Positions 1,469 through 8,285 of a stretch of DNA of 64,000 nt are shown here, piece after piece. Below the pieces are notes generated by a model, which was not told the origin of the DNA, did no database searches, and saw only the letters and a list, made by a program, of their open reading frames with translations. This stretch comes from Candidatus Firestoneibacteriota bacterium (lineage in GTDB: Bacteria > Oederibacteriota > D2-FULL-39-29 > JBBTED01): contig JBBTED010000002.1 of NCBI GenBank assembly GCA_038042445.1, positions 14,783-78,782 on the forward strand, read 5' to 3'. The position numbers and the translations under genes are program-made. Position 1 is the first letter of the stretch, and each line of letters begins with the position of its first letter.

Positions 1469-2408
1469 CAAACACACTCGTCATGATTTTCTTTAAAAGC
1501 GCAAATGATGATATTTTTCTTGATTGCTGTATAACAATCCTTTTCTCAAACATTTTATTTGAATTTAAAAAAGCCTCTTTTTTGGCATTGAATACAATTC
1601 TGCCCTTGCCTCTTAATGTATAAATAATAAATGTCCAGATAACAAATATTAGATGTAATGGATATACAATTAAAAATAATGCTAAAGGTATATCTTTTAT
1701 AAGCACATATTCCTGATTTCTTTGCACTAAATAAATAAATAAATCGCTACCTATTTTAAAAGTAGTGCCAAGCCTATGGTAAACTATTGCATCTGGAACA
1801 TACAAACATTTGTATCCTCTCAGTTGCAATCTCAAGGACAAATCTATATCTTCATAATACCCAAAAAAATCCTCATCAAAAAACCCCACCTCTTCCAATA
1901 TTTGTTTTCTATATATAGAAGCACATCCACTTGCAGATAAAACTTCTTCTAATTTATTATAATTATCTTTATTTTTATTATGCCCGCGTTTTTTGCCATA
2001 GCCAAAAATTGAAAAATTATCTCCTGCAGTATCAATTATGTTTTTTCTATTGTAAAATAAGATTTTTGATGTGCAAGATGCAACACCAGGATATTTTTGA
2101 ATCGTTTTATGTAAATTTTCAAGCCAGTATTTGTCAGCAACTGCATCATTATTAAGCAAAGCAATAAATTCACCTTGAGCAACTTTTAATGCTTCATTAT
2201 TCGCCTTTGCAAACCCGATTTTTTCAGTAAATTTGATTAGCTTTATTTCAGGAAATTTTTCAGATATATATTCTGACGACAAATCAGTAGACCCATTATC
2301 CACAACTATTATTTCAACATTCTCATTTAAACTCTGATTGAGTAATGAATTTAAACATTCCTCTATAATCTCTCTGCCATTTGCATTAACCACTACTACA
2401 CTTATCAT
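1452..2408 (-). CDS. Glycosyltransferase family 2 protein
   Basis: ISVVVVN, IIVVDNGSTD, GFAKANN, LLNND (DxD-like), FDEDFFGYYEDIDL. Confidence 0.92.
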   Translation of the reverse strand: MISVVVVNANGREIIEECLNSLLNQSLNENVEIIVVDNGSTDLSSEYISEKFPEIKLIKFTEKIGFAKANNEALKVAQGEFIALLNNDAVADKYWLENLHKTIQKYPGVASCTSKILFYNRKNIIDTAGDNFSIFGYGKKRGHNKNKDNYNKLEEVLSASGCASIYRKQILEEVGFFDEDFFGYYEDIDLSLRLQLRGYKCLYVPDAIVYHRLGTTFKIGSDLFIYLVQRNQEYVLIKDIPLALFLIVYPLHLIFVIWTFIIYTLRGKGRIVFNAKKEAFLNSNKMFEKRIVIQQSRKISSFALLKKIMTSVFGNRRL

Positions 2409-2414
2409 TATAAA

Positions 2415-2443
2415 AGTTTATCATAGGCAAAATCGGATGTAAA
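2415..2443 (-). promoter_or_regulatory. Putative sigma70 promoter of the GT2 gene, probably leaderless
   Basis: Minus strand TTTACA-N17-TAAACT with extended TG, 6 nt before the ATG at 2408; no SD. Confidence 0.55.
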
Positions 2444-2453
2444 GGATTGACTT

Positions 2454-2584
2454 CAGAAATTCCCCAAAATGGTATTTTTGCAGTTTTGTCATGCTGAATT
2501 TATTTCAGCATCTAATAAAGTCAAGGGGTTTTAAGACCCTGAAACAAGTTCAGGGTGACAAAAAGTCTATTTGGGGAATTTCTG
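2454..2584. mobile_element. 131-bp MITE-like element, copy 1
   Basis: 15-bp perfect TIR cagaaattccccaaa/tttggggaatttctg; 9-bp flanking direct repeat GATTGACTT (2445-2453, 2585-2593); near-identical copy at 7584-7714. Confidence 0.9.
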
Positions 2585-2586
2585 GA

Positions 2587-2616
2587 TTGACTTTTTCAAT
2601 ATTCATCTGCTATAAT
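2587..2616 (+). promoter_or_regulatory. Putative sigma70 promoter of the pst operon
   Basis: TTGACT(2587-2592)-N18-TATAAT(2611-2616) upstream of pstS. Confidence 0.6.
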
Positions 2617-2688
2617 TTAGCATCTTAAAAATCATACAATCAATTAGCTTTTAAATAACATATTCAAATTGTAAAATTGGAGGAAATG

Positions 2689-3570
2689 ATGCGTAAAAAT
2701 TTATATGCAACAGCAGTTTTTATAATTTCATTCGCCATAATGGTGAATGGTTGTAGCAGAAATAATACAGGAACACAAACAAAACCTGCAATTCAGATAA
2801 AGGGTTCTGACACAATGGTGAATTTAGGACAGGCATGGGCGGAAGAATTCACAAAATTACATCCTGAAGTAAATATAGCTGTTACTGGAGGAGGCTCTGG
2901 AACAGGAATTGCGGGTTTGCTAAATGGAACCTGTGACATTGCGGAATCATCAAGAGATGTTGAAGATAAAGAAATTACACTTGGAAAAGAAAAAGGAATA
3001 AATTTTGCTAAGCATACTGTTGGACTTGATGGATTAGCTGTAGTTGTTCATCCATTAAATCCAGTCACAAATCTAACTTTAGATGAATTACGCGCCATAT
3101 TTATAGGAGAAATAACAAACTGGAAAAATCTAGGTGGCAAAGATTCTAAAATTGTTGTTCTCTCAAGAGAAGTTAATTCTGGAACTCATGTTTTCTTTAA
3201 AGAACATGTTTTAAGAAAAGGAAAGTCGAAAAGCGAAGAATTTGCACCCTCTGCACTTTTAATGCCATCATCACAAGCAATAGCCGACGAAATCACACAA
3301 AACCCAAATGCAATAGGTTATTATGGAATGGGATATATTTCAGAAAAACAAAAAGCTATACATATTGCAAAGGATAAAAAATCTCTATATATTACTCCTA
3401 CTAAGGAAAATGTTATTAATAATAAATATCCTATTTCAAGACCTCTTTTTATGTTTACTAATGGCGAACCAAAAGAAGCAATTAAAAATTTTATGGATTT
3501 TGCTCTTTCCGAACAAGGACAGGCAATAGTGGAAAAAGTTGAATTTGTTCCGGTAAAACAAAAAAAATAA
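2689..3570 (+). CDS. pstS: Phosphate ABC transporter substrate-binding lipoprotein PstS
   Basis: Lipobox-like VNGC; KGSDTM, GGGSGTGI, SREVNSGT, YPISRPLF; SD GGAGG at 2679-2683; pst operon context. Confidence 0.93.
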   Translation: MRKNLYATAVFIISFAIMVNGCSRNNTGTQTKPAIQIKGSDTMVNLGQAWAEEFTKLHPEVNIAVTGGGSGTGIAGLLNGTCDIAESSRDVEDKEITLGKEKGINFAKHTVGLDGLAVVVHPLNPVTNLTLDELRAIFIGEITNWKNLGGKDSKIVVLSREVNSGTHVFFKEHVLRKGKSKSEEFAPSALLMPSSQAIADEITQNPNAIGYYGMGYISEKQKAIHIAKDKKSLYITPTKENVINNKYPISRPLFMFTNGEPKEAIKNFMDFALSEQGQAIVEKVEFVPVKQKK

Positions 3571-3577
3571 TTCTTTC

Positions 3578-4453
3578 GTGAAACTTGATAAAAAAATAAA
3601 AGAATTTACAATAGAAAATCTGATTTTTATTTCTGGGATACTTACAATAATATTTGTTGTTTTGATTTTTATATTTTTGTTCAAAGAAGGTATTTTGTTT
3701 CTTAAAGTTTATCCTATAATAGATTTTCTTTTTGGGAAATTATGGTATCCAATTTCAGACCCTGCTAAATTCGGAATTTTGCCTTTAATCTTAGGTTCCT
3801 TGCTTGTAACACTCGGTGCTACAGTCATATCTGTTCCTTTAGGAATTGCATCCGCCTTTTATATATCAGAAATAGCTCCAGGAAAATTAAGAGACATTTT
3901 AAAGTATCTAATTGAATTGCTTGCTGCTATTCCAAGTGTAGTAATTGGATTTGTAGGAATGATTACTTTAATACCATTAATAAAAAACATCTTTCATATA
4001 CCAACAGGATTAACTGCACTATCCGGAAGTATAACATTGGCATTTATGGCTATTCCAACTATTGTATCTATTGCTGAAGATGCCATAACATCTGTTCCAA
4101 AAAGCTATAGAGAAGCAAGTATTGCACTCGGAGCAACTAAATGGCAGACAATGTATAGAGTAACAATCAGAGCTGCTTTACCTGGCATTATAGCTGCAAT
4201 AATGCTTGGAATAGGAAGAGTTATAGGTGAAACAATGGCAGTTATGATGATAACAGGTAATTCTGCTGTAATTCCCCAAACCTTTTTACAACCAATTAGA
4301 ACTATGACAGCAACAATTGCAGCTGAAATGGGAGAAACTGTACGAGGAAGCAATCACTACTACGCTTTATTTGCTATAGGTGTAGTTTTATTTGCAATAA
4401 CTTTTGTAATAAACTTTCTTGCAGACACTTTTCTCAATAAAGTAAAAAAATGA
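3578..4453 (+). CDS. pstC: Phosphate ABC transporter permease PstC
   Basis: ELLAAIPSVVIG, EAA-like loop EASIALGAT, GRVIGETMAV. Confidence 0.95.
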   Translation: MKLDKKIKEFTIENLIFISGILTIIFVVLIFIFLFKEGILFLKVYPIIDFLFGKLWYPISDPAKFGILPLILGSLLVTLGATVISVPLGIASAFYISEIAPGKLRDILKYLIELLAAIPSVVIGFVGMITLIPLIKNIFHIPTGLTALSGSITLAFMAIPTIVSIAEDAITSVPKSYREASIALGATKWQTMYRVTIRAALPGIIAAIMLGIGRVIGETMAVMMITGNSAVIPQTFLQPIRTMTATIAAEMGETVRGSNHYYALFAIGVVLFAITFVINFLADTFLNKVKK

Positions 4454-5295
4454 CACCTAAAATAGCTCAAAAAATAGCGTTTGTTCTGATATTTTTAGCA
4501 ACAATAATAGTAATTATTCCTGTTCTATTAATATTTGGAATTATATTAGTTAATGGATTGCCTGCAATAAATTTTGAATTTTTATTTTCAATGCCAAAAG
4601 AAGGAATGAGAGCAGGCGGAATTTTCCCTGTAATAATTGGCTCAATTTACCTTGTTACTCTTGCCTGTTTGATTTCTTTACCAATAGGAGTATCAGCTGC
4701 AATTTATTTAGTTGAATATGCAAAAGAAAATCTACTTACACGATTAATTAAATTAGCAATTGTAAATTTAGCAGGCGTACCCTCTGTAGTATATGGTTTA
4801 TTTGGGCTTGGGTTATTTGTAATATTTCTTGGATTTGGTGTATCTATTTTATCTGGCTCTCTTACACTTGCTATAATGACGCTACCAGTAATAATAACTG
4901 CTTCAAGAGAAGCTTTAACAAGTGTTCCACTATCTTTCAGAGAAGTAAGTTTATCATTAGGCGCTAGCAAATGGCAAACAATACGACATGTAGTTTTACC
5001 AAATGCCTTACCTGGAATAATGACAGGCACAATATTAAGTGTGTCCCGTATTGCTGGTGAAGCAGCGCCTATTTTATTTACTGTAGCAGCATTTTATCTG
5101 CCTAATCTACCAAAATCTGTTTTTGACCAGGCAATGGCTTTACCATATCACCTTTACATAATTTCAACTCAAATACCTAATATACCCAAAAAATTTACGT
5201 ATGGAACAGCATTAGTATTAGTAATGCTTGTAGCAATAATGAATTTTTCTGCTGTCCTTATACGTTCTCGTTTCAGGAAAAATAAAAAATGGTAG
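4450..5295 (+). CDS. pstA: Phosphate ABC transporter permease PstA
   Basis: AAIYLVEYA, NLAGVPSVVYGLFG, RIAGEAAP. Confidence 0.95.
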   Translation: MTPKIAQKIAFVLIFLATIIVIIPVLLIFGIILVNGLPAINFEFLFSMPKEGMRAGGIFPVIIGSIYLVTLACLISLPIGVSAAIYLVEYAKENLLTRLIKLAIVNLAGVPSVVYGLFGLGLFVIFLGFGVSILSGSLTLAIMTLPVIITASREALTSVPLSFREVSLSLGASKWQTIRHVVLPNALPGIMTGTILSVSRIAGEAAPILFTVAAFYLPNLPKSVFDQAMALPYHLYIISTQIPNIPKKFTYGTALVLVMLVAIMNFSAVLIRSRFRKNKKW

Positions 5296-6041
5296 AAAAA
5301 ATAATTGTCAAAAATTTGAGTGTTTTTTATGGTAAAGAATTAGTTTTGAAATCAGTTAATTTTTCTGTCCATCAAAATGAAATTCTTGGAATAATAGGAC
5401 CTGCGAATAGCGGAAAAACATCTTTTTTAAGAACACTCAATAGATTAAACAACCTTTTGTCAAATTTTAGGCTTGAAGGCAATATTTATTTGGATAACAA
5501 GGATATTTATAAAGAAATAAATGTAGAGTTATTGCGAAAAAATTTGGGTATGGTGTTTGCTCTACCTTTGCCACTTCCTATGTCTATATTTGATAATGTA
5601 GCTTATGGGCCAAAAATGTCAGGAATAAAAAACAAAGGTGAATTAAATAGAATTGTTGAAGACTCTTTAAAATCCGCATATCTTTTTGATGAAGTAAAAG
5701 ACAGACTTGATGAAGCTGCTTTCAAATTATCCGGTGGACAACAACAAAGACTCTGCATTGCAAGAATGCTTGCTAATAAACCTGAAGTATTACTTTTTGA
5801 TGAACCCTGCTCAGGATTAGACCCTATATCTACAGCTAAGGTTGAAGAAGCTATGTCTGAATTAAAAAAACAATATACAATCATACTTGTTACTAATAAT
5901 GTAAAACAAGCAGCAAGAGTTTCAGATAGAACTGCATTTTTTCTTGCAGGTGAATTAATAGAAATAGATTCTACAGACAAATTATTTATTTCACCAAAAA
6001 ACAAGAAAACTGAAGATTATATTTCAGGAAGGTTTGGTTAG
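5289..6041 (+). CDS. pstB: Phosphate ABC transporter ATP-binding protein PstB1 (degenerate Q-loop and H-switch)
   Basis: Walker A GPANSGKT, signature LSGGQQQR, Walker B LLFDEP, C-terminal TEDYISGRFG. Confidence 0.9.
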   Translation: MVEKIIVKNLSVFYGKELVLKSVNFSVHQNEILGIIGPANSGKTSFLRTLNRLNNLLSNFRLEGNIYLDNKDIYKEINVELLRKNLGMVFALPLPLPMSIFDNVAYGPKMSGIKNKGELNRIVEDSLKSAYLFDEVKDRLDEAAFKLSGGQQQRLCIARMLANKPEVLLFDEPCSGLDPISTAKVEEAMSELKKQYTIILVTNNVKQAARVSDRTAFFLAGELIEIDSTDKLFISPKNKKTEDYISGRFG

Positions 6042-6046
6042 TATTT

Positions 6047-6808
6047 ATGGATGCAATTACTGTTAATAATTTAGATTTATACTATGGCCATTTTCATGCT
6101 TTAAAATCTGTAAATATGAAAGTTGCGGAAAAAATTATAACTTCTATCATAGGTCCATCTGGTTGTGGTAAATCCACACTTTTAAGAACATTTAATAGAA
6201 TGAATGATTTAATAGAAGGCACATATATTACTGGTGAAATTTTGATAAATAATAAAAATATCTTTGACCAAAATACTGATTTGGATTTATTAAGAAGGAA
6301 AGTTGGAATGGTTTTTCAAAGACCAAATCCTTTTCCCCTTACAATTTTTGAAAATGTTGCATTCGGCTTAAGAATTCATCCAGATATTGGCAGAAAAGTA
6401 AAAGAAAAAATACCTGATATTGTTAAAACAAGTTTACAATCGGTATTATTGTGGGATGAAGTAAAAAACAAGTTAAACACTTCAGCTTTGAAACTTTCTT
6501 TAGAACAGCAGCAAAGACTTTGTATTGCAAGACTTTTACCAATAAAGCCTGAAATACTATTAATGGACGAACCATGCTCAGCACTTGACCCAATTGCAAC
6601 TTCAAGAGTTGAAGAACTCTTAATTGAACTTAAAAAAAATTATACAATAGTCATTGTTACACATAATATGCAACAAGCAGCAAGAATATCAGATGAAACA
6701 GGTTTTATGCTTTTAGGTGAATTAATAGAATTTAGTGAAACTAAAGAAATATTTACAAATCCTAAAAACAAACAAACAGAAAACTATATAACAGGAAGAT
6801 TTGGTTAA
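6047..6808 (+). CDS. pstB: Phosphate ABC transporter ATP-binding protein PstB2 (degenerate signature motif)
   Basis: Walker A GPSGCGKST, Q-loop GMVFQRPNPFP, LLMDEP, VTHNMQQAAR, YITGRFG; signature LSLEQ. Confidence 0.93.
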   Translation: MDAITVNNLDLYYGHFHALKSVNMKVAEKIITSIIGPSGCGKSTLLRTFNRMNDLIEGTYITGEILINNKNIFDQNTDLDLLRRKVGMVFQRPNPFPLTIFENVAFGLRIHPDIGRKVKEKIPDIVKTSLQSVLLWDEVKNKLNTSALKLSLEQQQRLCIARLLPIKPEILLMDEPCSALDPIATSRVEELLIELKKNYTIVIVTHNMQQAARISDETGFMLLGELIEFSETKEIFTNPKNKQTENYITGRFG

Positions 6809-6825
6809 AACAGGAGGATAAAAAT

Positions 6826-7491
6826 ATGGAAAGACATTTTGATGAAGAATTGAAGTCTCTAAATGAAAGAATACTTTATATGGGTGGTTTAATAGAATCA
6901 ATGACCTATAATGCAATAAAAGCACTTGTAGATAGAAATGCCGATTTAGTCAAAGAAATATTTAAAACCGAAGATGAGGTCAATAAATTACACATAGAAA
7001 TTGATGATAAATGTTTAAAACTGGTTGCATTAAGGCAACCAACTGCAGTTGATTTAAGATTTATAGCTTCTGCAATGAAAATAAACAGTGATTTGGAAAG
7101 AATGGGTGACCAAGCTGTAAATATAGCAGAAAATACAGAAGATCTTCTGAAACAACCACAATTAAAACCACTTATAGATTTACCAAAGATGGCAGATATT
7201 GCAAAAAATATGGTAAAAGATAGTTTAGATGCATTTGTAAAAAAAGATGTGGAATTGGCAAAATCCGTACTTGCAAGAGATGATGAAGTAGACAATTTAA
7301 AAGATCAAATATTTAGAGAACTTTTGACCTATATGATAGCTTCACCACAAAATATTGAAAGAAGCTTGGATTTAATACTCATTTCAAGAAATTTAGAACG
7401 TATAGGTGACCACGCAACAAATATAGCAGAAGATGTTATATTTATGGTTATTGGCAAAGACATTAGACACCATATAGAAGACAAAAAATAA
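6826..7491 (+). CDS. phoU: Phosphate signalling complex protein PhoU
   Basis: RQPTAVDLR, DLERMGDQAVNIAE and LERIGDHATNIAE repeats; SD GGAGG. Confidence 0.96.
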   Translation: MERHFDEELKSLNERILYMGGLIESMTYNAIKALVDRNADLVKEIFKTEDEVNKLHIEIDDKCLKLVALRQPTAVDLRFIASAMKINSDLERMGDQAVNIAENTEDLLKQPQLKPLIDLPKMADIAKNMVKDSLDAFVKKDVELAKSVLARDDEVDNLKDQIFRELLTYMIASPQNIERSLDLILISRNLERIGDHATNIAEDVIFMVIGKDIRHHIEDKK

Positions 7492-7521
7492 TTTCTTTTA
7501 ATAAATCATACGGGGTTTATT

Positions 7522-7542
7522 GTAGTTGCCGATTTATCGACA
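7522..7542. repeat. GTAG-type REP (family B, GTAGTTGCCGATTTATCGGCA)
   Basis: gtagttgccgatttatcgaca; reverse-orientation copies at 16617 and 53578. Confidence 0.75.
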
Positions 7543-7583
7543 GTTTTTTGTGCTGATAATTTTTAAACTATAGTTTATTTCCC

Positions 7584-7714
7584 CAGAAATTCCCAAAAAT
7601 GGTATTTTTGCAGTTTTGTCATGCTGAATTCATTTCAGTATCTAATAAAATCAAGGGATTTTGAGACCCTGAAACAAGTTCAGGGTGACAAGAAGTCTAT
7701 TTGGGGAATTTCTG
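7584..7714. mobile_element. 131-bp MITE-like element, copy 2
   Basis: Same length and near-identical to 2454-2584; left TIR has one mismatch; own 9-bp flanking direct repeat TTATTTCCC (7575-7583, 7715-7723). Confidence 0.9.
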
Positions 7715-7743
7715 TTATTTCCCCTTAAAACTACCATCATATA

Positions 7744-7752
7744 TGTTATAAT
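7744..7752 (+). promoter_or_regulatory. Extended -10 promoter of the ECF sigma gene, probably leaderless
   Basis: TGtTATAAT, 8 nt before the ATG at 7761; no SD. Confidence 0.5.
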
Positions 7753-7760
7753 TCTATCTT

Positions 7761-8285
7761 ATGGAAGAAAAGGAAATTATACAAAAAATCCTAAAGGGCG
7801 ATAAAGAAGCATTTGCTGAATTATTCTTTAAATATGAAAAATTCGTCTTTAATATCATAAGAAGAATAGTAGAAACTGAACAAGATGTTGAAGATATAGC
7901 ACAAGGAGTATTTCTAAAACTTTACACAAATTTATTTCAATTTCAAGGTAGATCAAAATTTTCTACGTGGTTATATCGTATTGTATACAATATTACCCTA
8001 AATTTTGTGCAACGCAAAAAGGATAAATTTGCCACAGAAAATATTGATAATATTTTTGAAATACAAGATACAACAGACCTAATTGATGAACAAGAGATAA
8101 CAAAAATATATGTAAATAAATTGCTTGAGTTACTCCCCCCTAATTATAGAACTGTCCTTGAACTTTATTATTTTAAGGATTTATCTTATGAAGAAATTGC
8201 AGTAGCGCTAAATATTCCAATAAATACGGTAAAAACACATATTTCAAGGGCAAAAAATATTATAAGGAAAAAATTAGACAAATGA
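7761..8285 (+). CDS. ECF-type sigma-70 factor (SigW/RpoE-like)
   Basis: GDKEAFAEL, EDIAQGVF, KFSTWLYRI (region 2); LSYEEIA...INTVKTHISRAK (region 4). Confidence 0.93.
   Translation: MEEKEIIQKILKGDKEAFAELFFKYEKFVFNIIRRIVETEQDVEDIAQGVFLKLYTNLFQFQGRSKFSTWLYRIVYNITLNFVQRKKDKFATENIDNIFEIQDTTDLIDEQEITKIYVNKLLELLPPNYRTVLELYYFKDLSYEEIAVALNIPINTVKTHISRAKNIIRKKLDK

Follow-up and report, generated by a model that had tools for sequence, protein, structure and literature searches.

Complementary changes in a widespread pair of PstB subunits point to a phosphate importer with one consensus and one altered ATP site

How can a phosphate importer be powered when neither of its two ATPase genes encodes a complete set of catalytic motifs? 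This question is raised by a phosphate transport (Pst) operon of a Candidatus Firestoneibacteriota bacterium (GenBank assembly GCA_038042445.1). The whole stretch of DNA that was analysed, called the window here, comprises 64,000 nucleotides of contig JBBTED010000002.1 (positions 14,783 to 78,782, forward strand). It carries two adjacent genes for the ATP-binding cassette (ABC) subunit of the importer, both of which are currently annotated simply as PstB. An earlier reading of this DNA, the original prediction, had placed two PstB open reading frames in 5289..6808, and they lie there exactly:

5289..6041, + strand: pstB1 (product B1), the altered-head subunit, 250 amino acids; TIGR00972, 351.1 bits against a cut-off of 343.2
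6047..6808, + strand: pstB2 (product B2), the altered-signature subunit, 253 amino acids; TIGR00972, 374.6 bits against a cut-off of 343.2

In solved ABC dimers each ATP is bound between the head of one domain, made up of Walker A, Walker B, Q-loop and H-loop, and the partner domain's signature. This head-to-signature geometry is also restated in PMC7756269 (here and below, PMC numbers stand for excerpts of the articles in question). Each motif of the two window proteins can be assigned to one side of such a site:

Walker A: B1 GPANSGKTS (residues 37-45, 5397..5423, + strand); B2 GPSGCGKST
Q-loop: B1 GMVFALP, with Ala91 for Gln (codon GCT, 5559..5561, + strand); B2 GMVFQRP, with Gln91
Signature: B1 LSGGQ (residues 147-151, 5727..5741, + strand); B2 LSLEQ (residues 150-154, 6494..6508, + strand)
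Walker B: B1 LLFDEP, with Asp171-Glu172 kept (5799..5804, + strand); B2 LLMDEP, with Glu175
H-switch: B1 VTNN, with Asn203 for His (codon AAT, 5895..5897, + strand); B2 VTHN, with His206

The two proteins are 52% identical (131/253), and neither has the full catalytic consensus of Q-loop Gln, LSGGQ and H-switch His: B1 is without the Gln and the His, B2 without the two glycines of the signature. Lys43 and Thr44 of the B1 Walker A are kept. The head of B2 is fully canonical (Walker A, Gln91, Walker B, His206), and its sole deviation is the LSLEQ signature, in which Glu153 (6503-6505) takes the place of the second Gly. E. coli PstB (PDB 9k3x), when aligned to B2 (E-value 4.9e-94), has the consensus at all these motif positions. 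A structural model of B1 predicted by AlphaFold2 represents a confident ABC domain, with a mean predicted local distance difference test score of 94.1 and a predicted template modelling (TM) score of 0.90. Its closest solved structure is again E. coli PstB (9k3x_C), with a TM score of 0.95, a root-mean-square deviation of 1.1 Å and 49% identity.

What do these complementary losses amount to? By homology with solved ABC dimers, all deviations would fall into one composite pocket, and at the level of motifs they do. Our preferred reading, to which we give a probability of about 80%, is that B1 and B2 form an obligate heterodimer in which one ATP site matches the consensus and the other is altered. 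We infer both the assembly of this heterodimer and its catalytic asymmetry from the sequences. The two subunits would assemble one-to-one on the permeases PstC and PstA and form the heterodimeric motor of a second, self-contained Pst phosphate importer. Walker A and B, Gln91 and His206 of B2 would face the LSGGQ of B1, giving one consensus ATP-hydrolysing site that drives transport, while the other pocket would consist of the B1 head and the LSLEQ of B2.

This altered pocket is predicted to retain the elements that bind the nucleotide with its α- and β-phosphates, namely the A-loop aromatic residue, Lys43/Thr44 and Asp171/Glu172. It would lack three contacts to the γ-phosphate through the changes of Gln to Ala and His to Asn in B1 and of Gly to Glu in the B2 signature, and all three lost elements are described as touching the γ-phosphate (PMC7756269). 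Since the residues for the base, the α/β-phosphates and Mg are kept and the γ-phosphate contacts are lost, the pocket can be expected to bind nucleotide with no or slow hydrolysis. It would then be a non-hydrolysing or very slow site, probably still occupied by nucleotide, that acts as a hinge or in regulation. If so, about one ATP would be spent per cycle. A single functional ATP site probably powers the pump.

The same reasoning suggests that homodimers would be inactive, as a B2 homodimer would have LSLEQ in both pockets and a B1 homodimer would be without Gln and His in both. This expectation is backed by CFTR, where the substitutions G551D and G551E at the same LSGGQ position render the site unresponsive or inhibitory via repulsion of the γ-phosphate (PMC4178940). 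In yeast Pdr5 the non-catalytic site has the signature LNVEQ, and ATP is held there stably; when Pdr5 was made symmetric by restoring the consensus, its activity was lost (PMC8421411, PMC7756269). The two precedents agree that such a site is non-catalytic, but disagree on whether ATP stays bound. The altered pocket could thus be either an ATP-glued hinge or an ADP-preferring site that excludes the γ-phosphate.

Are these changes peculiar to one genome? From the loci gathered we pooled 97 B1-type, 84 B2-type and 33 canonical PstB proteins. All 214 fit one of these three classes and none shows a mixed state (0/214); because the Gln, His and GG columns served to define the classes, the counts for Asn203 and for a missing Gln are partly circular, while those for Ala, Glu and the other columns are not. 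The Q-loop position of B1 is Ala91 in 96/97 proteins and Thr in the remaining one, and the H-switch position is Asn203 in 97/97. Its Walker A has Asn for Gly40 in 85/97 and Ser for Cys41 in 97/97; further changes are Leu96 for Phe (97/97) and Lys206 for Gln (93/97). What B1 retains is just as constant: the A-loop aromatic residue in 96/97, and Lys43, Thr or Ser at 44, Asp171, Glu172 and SGGQ in 97/97 each. B2 is canonical at every head motif in 84/84 proteins and has Glu153 in 84/84, preceded at position 152 by Leu (79), Gly (3) or Ala (2). Canonical PstBs have the Gln, LSGGQ and the His in 33/33. The picture is the same among the best 120 database proteins listed for B1, that is, B1 and 119 homologues of 67-93% identity: the Q-loop residue is Ala in 119 and Thr in one, and VTNN, SGGQ and DEP are present in 120/120. 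The altered Q-loop, H-switch and Walker A next to an intact signature in B1, and the canonical head next to LSLEQ in B2, read as the original prediction had it, and their residues recur in the 97 and 84 relatives, much more consistently than chance would allow.

If the two altered proteins complete each other, they should occur together. One genome per species was scanned with B1-specific peptide patterns; at least 599 stretches matched, at least 524 of them encoding relatives, and the best 80 loci were kept. In 73 of them the gene immediately downstream of B1 is of the B2 type, with the signature LSLEQ in 58, LTLEQ in 9, LSGEQ in 3 and LSLEA, LPLEQ and LSLES in one each, and 4 loci end too early for a second gene. 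The remaining 3 stem from genomes of about 1 megabase labelled Endomicrobium or Endomicrobiellum (G041-G043; L088, L091, L093, L112-L114), each with exactly two PstB genes: pstSCA-B1 is found on one contig and B2 (LTLEQ)-phoU on another. In a fourth small genome (L105/L111), B1 and B2 are adjacent. Both partners are thus kept in 76/76 testable loci, 73 adjacent and 3 unlinked. The phylum labels of the best 80 loci are Omnitrophota (42), Elusimicrobiota (10), Planctomycetota (9) and eight others, with 9 loci unlabelled, a mix that reflects the ranking by similarity to the window B1 and not the true range.

Along the same lines, a kinship-based census covered the genome of the window (G000) and 40 relatives, in which every PstB-family match was classified except for one fragment in G026. 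B1 is encoded in 16 of the 41 genomes, namely in 4 more distant genomes and in 12 of the 13 at class level, the genome of the window among them. B2 accompanies it in 15/16; the 16th (G032) has its B1 at the end of a contig. B2 without B1 was found in no genome of the census. Only canonical PstBs are found in 20 genomes and no PstB in 4. A canonical pstB is also present in 12 of the 16 B1 genomes, and in three (G001, G005, G021; 90-96% complete) B1 and B2 are the only PstBs. One genome with 5% contamination (G010) has two B1 copies.

The converse test started from B2. A metagenome scan with the B2 alignment and generic PstB patterns yielded 80 loci: 69 with a single canonical PstB, 2 with tandem canonical pairs (L190, L210) and 9 with an altered signature. 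Both genes of the tandem pairs encode LSGGQ and look like the ordinary Firmicute-like duplication. B1 is found directly upstream in 7 of the 9 altered-signature loci; in another (L162), which lies at a contig end, what remains of the upstream gene encodes the C-terminal 38 residues of a B1-like protein. Hence every PstB whose signature is acidic at position 4 (8/8) has B1 upstream, 7 whole and 1 cut by the contig end. The ninth locus is weighed below. Some metagenome loci contain more divergent B2 signatures (LTEEQ, LSPEQ, LAPEQ and LQLDQ in L240, L163, L164 and L174), with the acidic fourth position constant. At the Gln position divergent metagenome B1s have Ser, Val or Pro, their H-switch can read VSNN or VTNL, and in L240 DEP is replaced by DEF.

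The original prediction had claimed that all defects fall into one composite site of a matched pair, and had proposed covariation across tandem pairs as its check. Covariation across loci supports this claim at the motif level, with a B2-type partner for B1 in 76/76 testable loci and in 15/16 genomes, and with B1 upstream of the acidic-signature PstB in 8/8 loci of the converse sample. As judged from these sequences, B1 and B2 are a fixed, widespread pair and not a case of decay.

The separation of the classes does not depend on the catalytic motifs. A maximum-likelihood tree was computed without the columns of Walker A, Q-loop, signature, Walker B/D-loop and H-loop (193 columns, 114 rows), its rows being all canonical proteins, all proteins from related genomes and every third locus of the one-genome-per-species scan. 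B1 (support 100/98), canonical PstB (98/93) and B2 (85/38) still fall apart into groups, B2 being a single group in 86% of the bootstrap trees of a bootstrap that is not fully settled. The branching order of the three has support 0 when three other ABC ATPases of the genome serve as an outgroup, whose branches measure 8-10 changes per column.

Ratios of nonsynonymous to synonymous substitution rates (dN/dS) were obtained with a Nei-Gojobori script for pairs with dS of 0.05-1.5, taken from 51 loci:

B1: 13 pairs, median dN/dS 0.057, maximum 0.104
B2: 20 pairs, median dN/dS 0.064, maximum 0.223
phoU: 19 pairs, median dN/dS 0.049, maximum 0.390

Both B1 and B2 are under purifying selection. A comparison of PstC and PstA from B1/B2 operons (72 and 75 proteins) with those from canonical operons (21 each) gave a handful of fixed differences, and no clear asymmetry in the EAA/coupling-helix region among these proteins.

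In the window, pstB1 and pstB2 are embedded in an operon with the remaining parts of an importer:

2677..3570, + strand: pstS, PstS family (TIGR02136 type); TIGR02136, 273.4 bits against a cut-off of 206.6
3578..4453, + strand: pstC, permease; TIGR02138, 288.9 bits against a cut-off of 196.45
4450..5295, + strand: pstA, permease; TIGR00974, 286.2 bits against a cut-off of 193.45
6826..7491, + strand: phoU, phosphate signalling complex protein; TIGR02135, 237.5 bits against a cut-off of 130.25

The gene order is pstS-pstC-pstA-pstB1-pstB2-phoU, all on the + strand, and all six products score above the curated NCBIfam cut-offs for these roles (6/6). The end of pstA overlaps the start of pstB1 by 7 nucleotides, and 5 nucleotides separate the B1 stop from the B2 start. 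Across 51 loci this spacer has a median of -1 nucleotide and is at most 20 nucleotides long in 44, a spacing that fits co-translation and equal amounts of the two subunits. The order of the window is also the commonest one in related loci: it is found whole in 38/83, most others being cut by locus ends, and phoU follows B2 in most related loci.

Upstream of pstS lies a strong sigma-70-like site (TTGACT-18-TATAAT with TG, 2587-2616), as well as two short inverted repeats, at about 2493-2510 and 2538-2556, that were spotted by eye. A scan of 2300-7800 for promoters and terminators gave no excess over shuffled sequences (30 against 28.2 and 3 against 2.0), and no Rfam families were found in the window.

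On another contig (L128, G000:C22:17000-31000) the same genome encodes a second phosphate system, complete and of the ordinary kind, in the order phoB, phoR, an open reading frame of 382 amino acids, pstS, pstC, pstA, a canonical pstB and a separate phoU. The 382-residue frame (3152-4300 of L128) has no NCBIfam match. The PstS types differ, with TIGR02136 in the B1/B2 operon of the window and TIGR00975 in the ordinary system; each system is thus equipped with a binding protein and a PhoU of its own. In several genomes of the one-genome-per-species scan (L034, L036, L039, L053, L083; first 1.3 kb of the locus) the ordinary and the asymmetric system are direct neighbours: a canonical pstB, frequently accompanied by phoU, is located upstream of the B1/B2 operon in the same orientation, at a distance of about 3 kb.

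Several observations weigh against a heterodimer with one silenced site. The catalytic Glu172 of the B1 Walker B, a point missing from the original prediction, is kept in 97/97 proteins, and loss of this Glu is described as the hallmark of degenerate exporter sites (PMC7544095, PMC7756269). Exchange of the H-loop His in the active site of MRP1 for Gln or Asn gives wild-type-like transport, as reported in a review (PMC7756269), so that the change from His to Asn alone need not kill hydrolysis. Then there is the ninth altered-signature locus of the converse sample: L179 encodes a PstB (852-1577) with LTLGQ, in which the second Gly is kept, and has no B1 upstream. This gene starts about 650 nucleotides after the end of a phoU, and its product may be an intermediate or a different variant. 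Finally, the best 150 representatives of 50%-identity clusters found with a B1 profile comprise 122 canonical proteins and 28 others. A few of the latter are candidates for a mixed state, for example Gln next to Asn, or Pro/Ser combined with His and a changed signature; they may be genuine variants, gene fusions or errors of gene calling, and many are long (300-620 amino acids). Clusters at 50% identity are too coarse for this comparison, since identity among B1, B2 and canonical PstB is itself about 50%. The PstB family is more varied than three clean classes.

Could the altered pocket have a purpose of its own? A tentative extension of the heterodimer reading, which we regard as possible rather than probable, is that the pocket is built to exclude the γ-phosphate and that the importer saves or senses energy. 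Glu153 of B2 would sit at the place of the γ-phosphate and, with both γ sensors of B1 gone, the pocket would close on ADP or empty. Were this true, one ATP would be spent per phosphate, and transport activity would read the ADP/ATP state and possibly relay it via the system's own PhoU. It would also mean that a natural type I ABC importer that saves and senses energy stands beside or instead of the two-site Pst in many uncultured lineages.

The same residues can be read in the opposite way. Both pockets might be catalytic, the altered one being rewired and not disabled, which would make a two-site motor with unusual chemistry: Glu172 of B1 would act as the base, Asn203 would replace the His, and Glu153 of B2 would do the work of the lost Gln or His in trans. 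The invariance of Asp171 and Glu172 in B1 (97/97) and of Glu153 in B2 (84/84) does look like selection for specific residues and not like loss, and the tolerance of the MRP1 active site to His-to-Asn exchange (PMC7756269) points the same way. However, CFTR loses ATP-driven function when this signature position is acidic (G551D, G551E; PMC4178940), and in Pdr5 an acidic residue here belongs to the non-hydrolysing site (PMC8421411). Three separate γ-phosphate contacts have changed together, and a kept Walker B Glu is also compatible with a site that only binds Mg-nucleotide. We consider a rewired catalytic pocket unlikely.

B1 might also not belong to the motor at all. A B2 homodimer would then power the importer, and B1 would be a soluble or peripheral regulator, for example a nucleotide sensor acting toward PhoU or PhoR. 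B1 is indeed the more divergent of the two, with a stem branch of 0.61 against 0.21 for B2, and one of the tandem PstBs of Enterococcus faecalis is accessory and can be replaced by an excess of the other (PMC12096839). Those paralogues are both canonical, though, and present a different case (PMC12096839), while a B2 homodimer would have the defect of CFTR G551E twice, with LSLEQ in both pockets. The LSGGQ of B1 is perfect in 97/97 proteins, which matters only if it completes a partner's site. In addition, the overlap of pstB1 with pstA and its position right next to pstB2 suggest that the two subunits are made in a one-to-one ratio, and B1 remains with pstSCA where the operon splits. A separate regulatory role for B1 seems highly improbable on these grounds. 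Neutral or degenerative drift of a redundant duplicate without function would fit the canonical pstB operon that is also present in 12/16 related B1 genomes, but this reading, pseudogenes included, was rejected on dN/dS (about 0.06) and residue conservation, and with the same residues recurring in loci of many phylum labels and B1 and B2 as the only PstBs in three related and four small genomes we give it next to no credence.

Why would a B1/B2 heterodimer matter? The ATP cost per substrate and the role of the second site in binding-protein-dependent importers are still argued largely from engineered mutants. Here, an asymmetric motor appears to have been fixed by nature in an importer family that is well understood, and at least 524 genomes at species level carry it. 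The symmetric Pst that 12 of the 16 related B1 genomes also encode offers a built-in comparison within the same cell for stoichiometry, PhoU regulation, and cost and benefit under energy or phosphate limitation. Since both genes carry the name PstB, metabolic models treat B1 and B2 as duplicates.

How does the pair relate to known systems? The original prediction knew of no such asymmetry in a Pst importer, which is consistent with our full-text literature search: no description of a degenerate PstB pair was found, in a corpus that leaves most subscription journals outside its coverage. Asymmetry with one consensus site is known in exporters and in some importers with fused nucleotide-binding domains (NBDs); for a type I importer of the Pst kind it is seemingly undescribed. 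The closest relative in gene family and operon logic is E. coli PstSCAB-PhoU (9k3x, 9k3y, 9k3s; PMC12976172), in which PstA and PstC each have one PstB docked on them; the searched text of this structure paper makes no mention of asymmetry. The E. coli complex has two identical canonical PstBs, whereas the window pair consists of two distinct subunits with complementary changes.

In Firmicutes such as E. faecalis and Bacillus subtilis, tandem pstB1/pstB2 (pstBA/pstBB) genes are likewise adjacent in one pst-phoU operon. The E. faecalis proteins are both canonical and have no degenerate site (PMC12096839), whereas neither window protein is fully canonical. The two E. faecalis genes are functionally non-equivalent, with overexpressed PstB2 alone being sufficient, and the excerpted text states that tandem pstB paralogues had not been studied before (PMC12096839). 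A survey of B. subtilis lists PstBA and PstBB as the two NBDs of one complex and, in the excerpt, notes degenerate sites only for the fused NBDs of RbsA and NupO (PMC11466899). These two are importers in which one ATP site is likewise non-competent by sequence (PMC11466899), but their NBDs are fused, their family and substrates are others, and they lose the Walker A Lys and Walker B residues that are kept in B1/B2.

Heterodimeric exporters such as TM287/288, BmrCD, TAP1/2, CFTR, MRP1 and Pdr5 also combine one non-consensus pocket, where deviating residues of one head face those of the partner's signature, with one consensus pocket. Like the B1/B2 pair, they are altered in the H-loop and the opposite signature, and the LNVEQ of Pdr5 has its Glu at the same position as the LSLEQ of B2 (PMC7756269, PMC8421411). 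They have other folds, while B1 and B2, as NBDs of a type I importer, are separate and soluble. The exporters lose the Walker B Glu; the B1/B2 pair keeps it and loses the Q-loop Gln instead.

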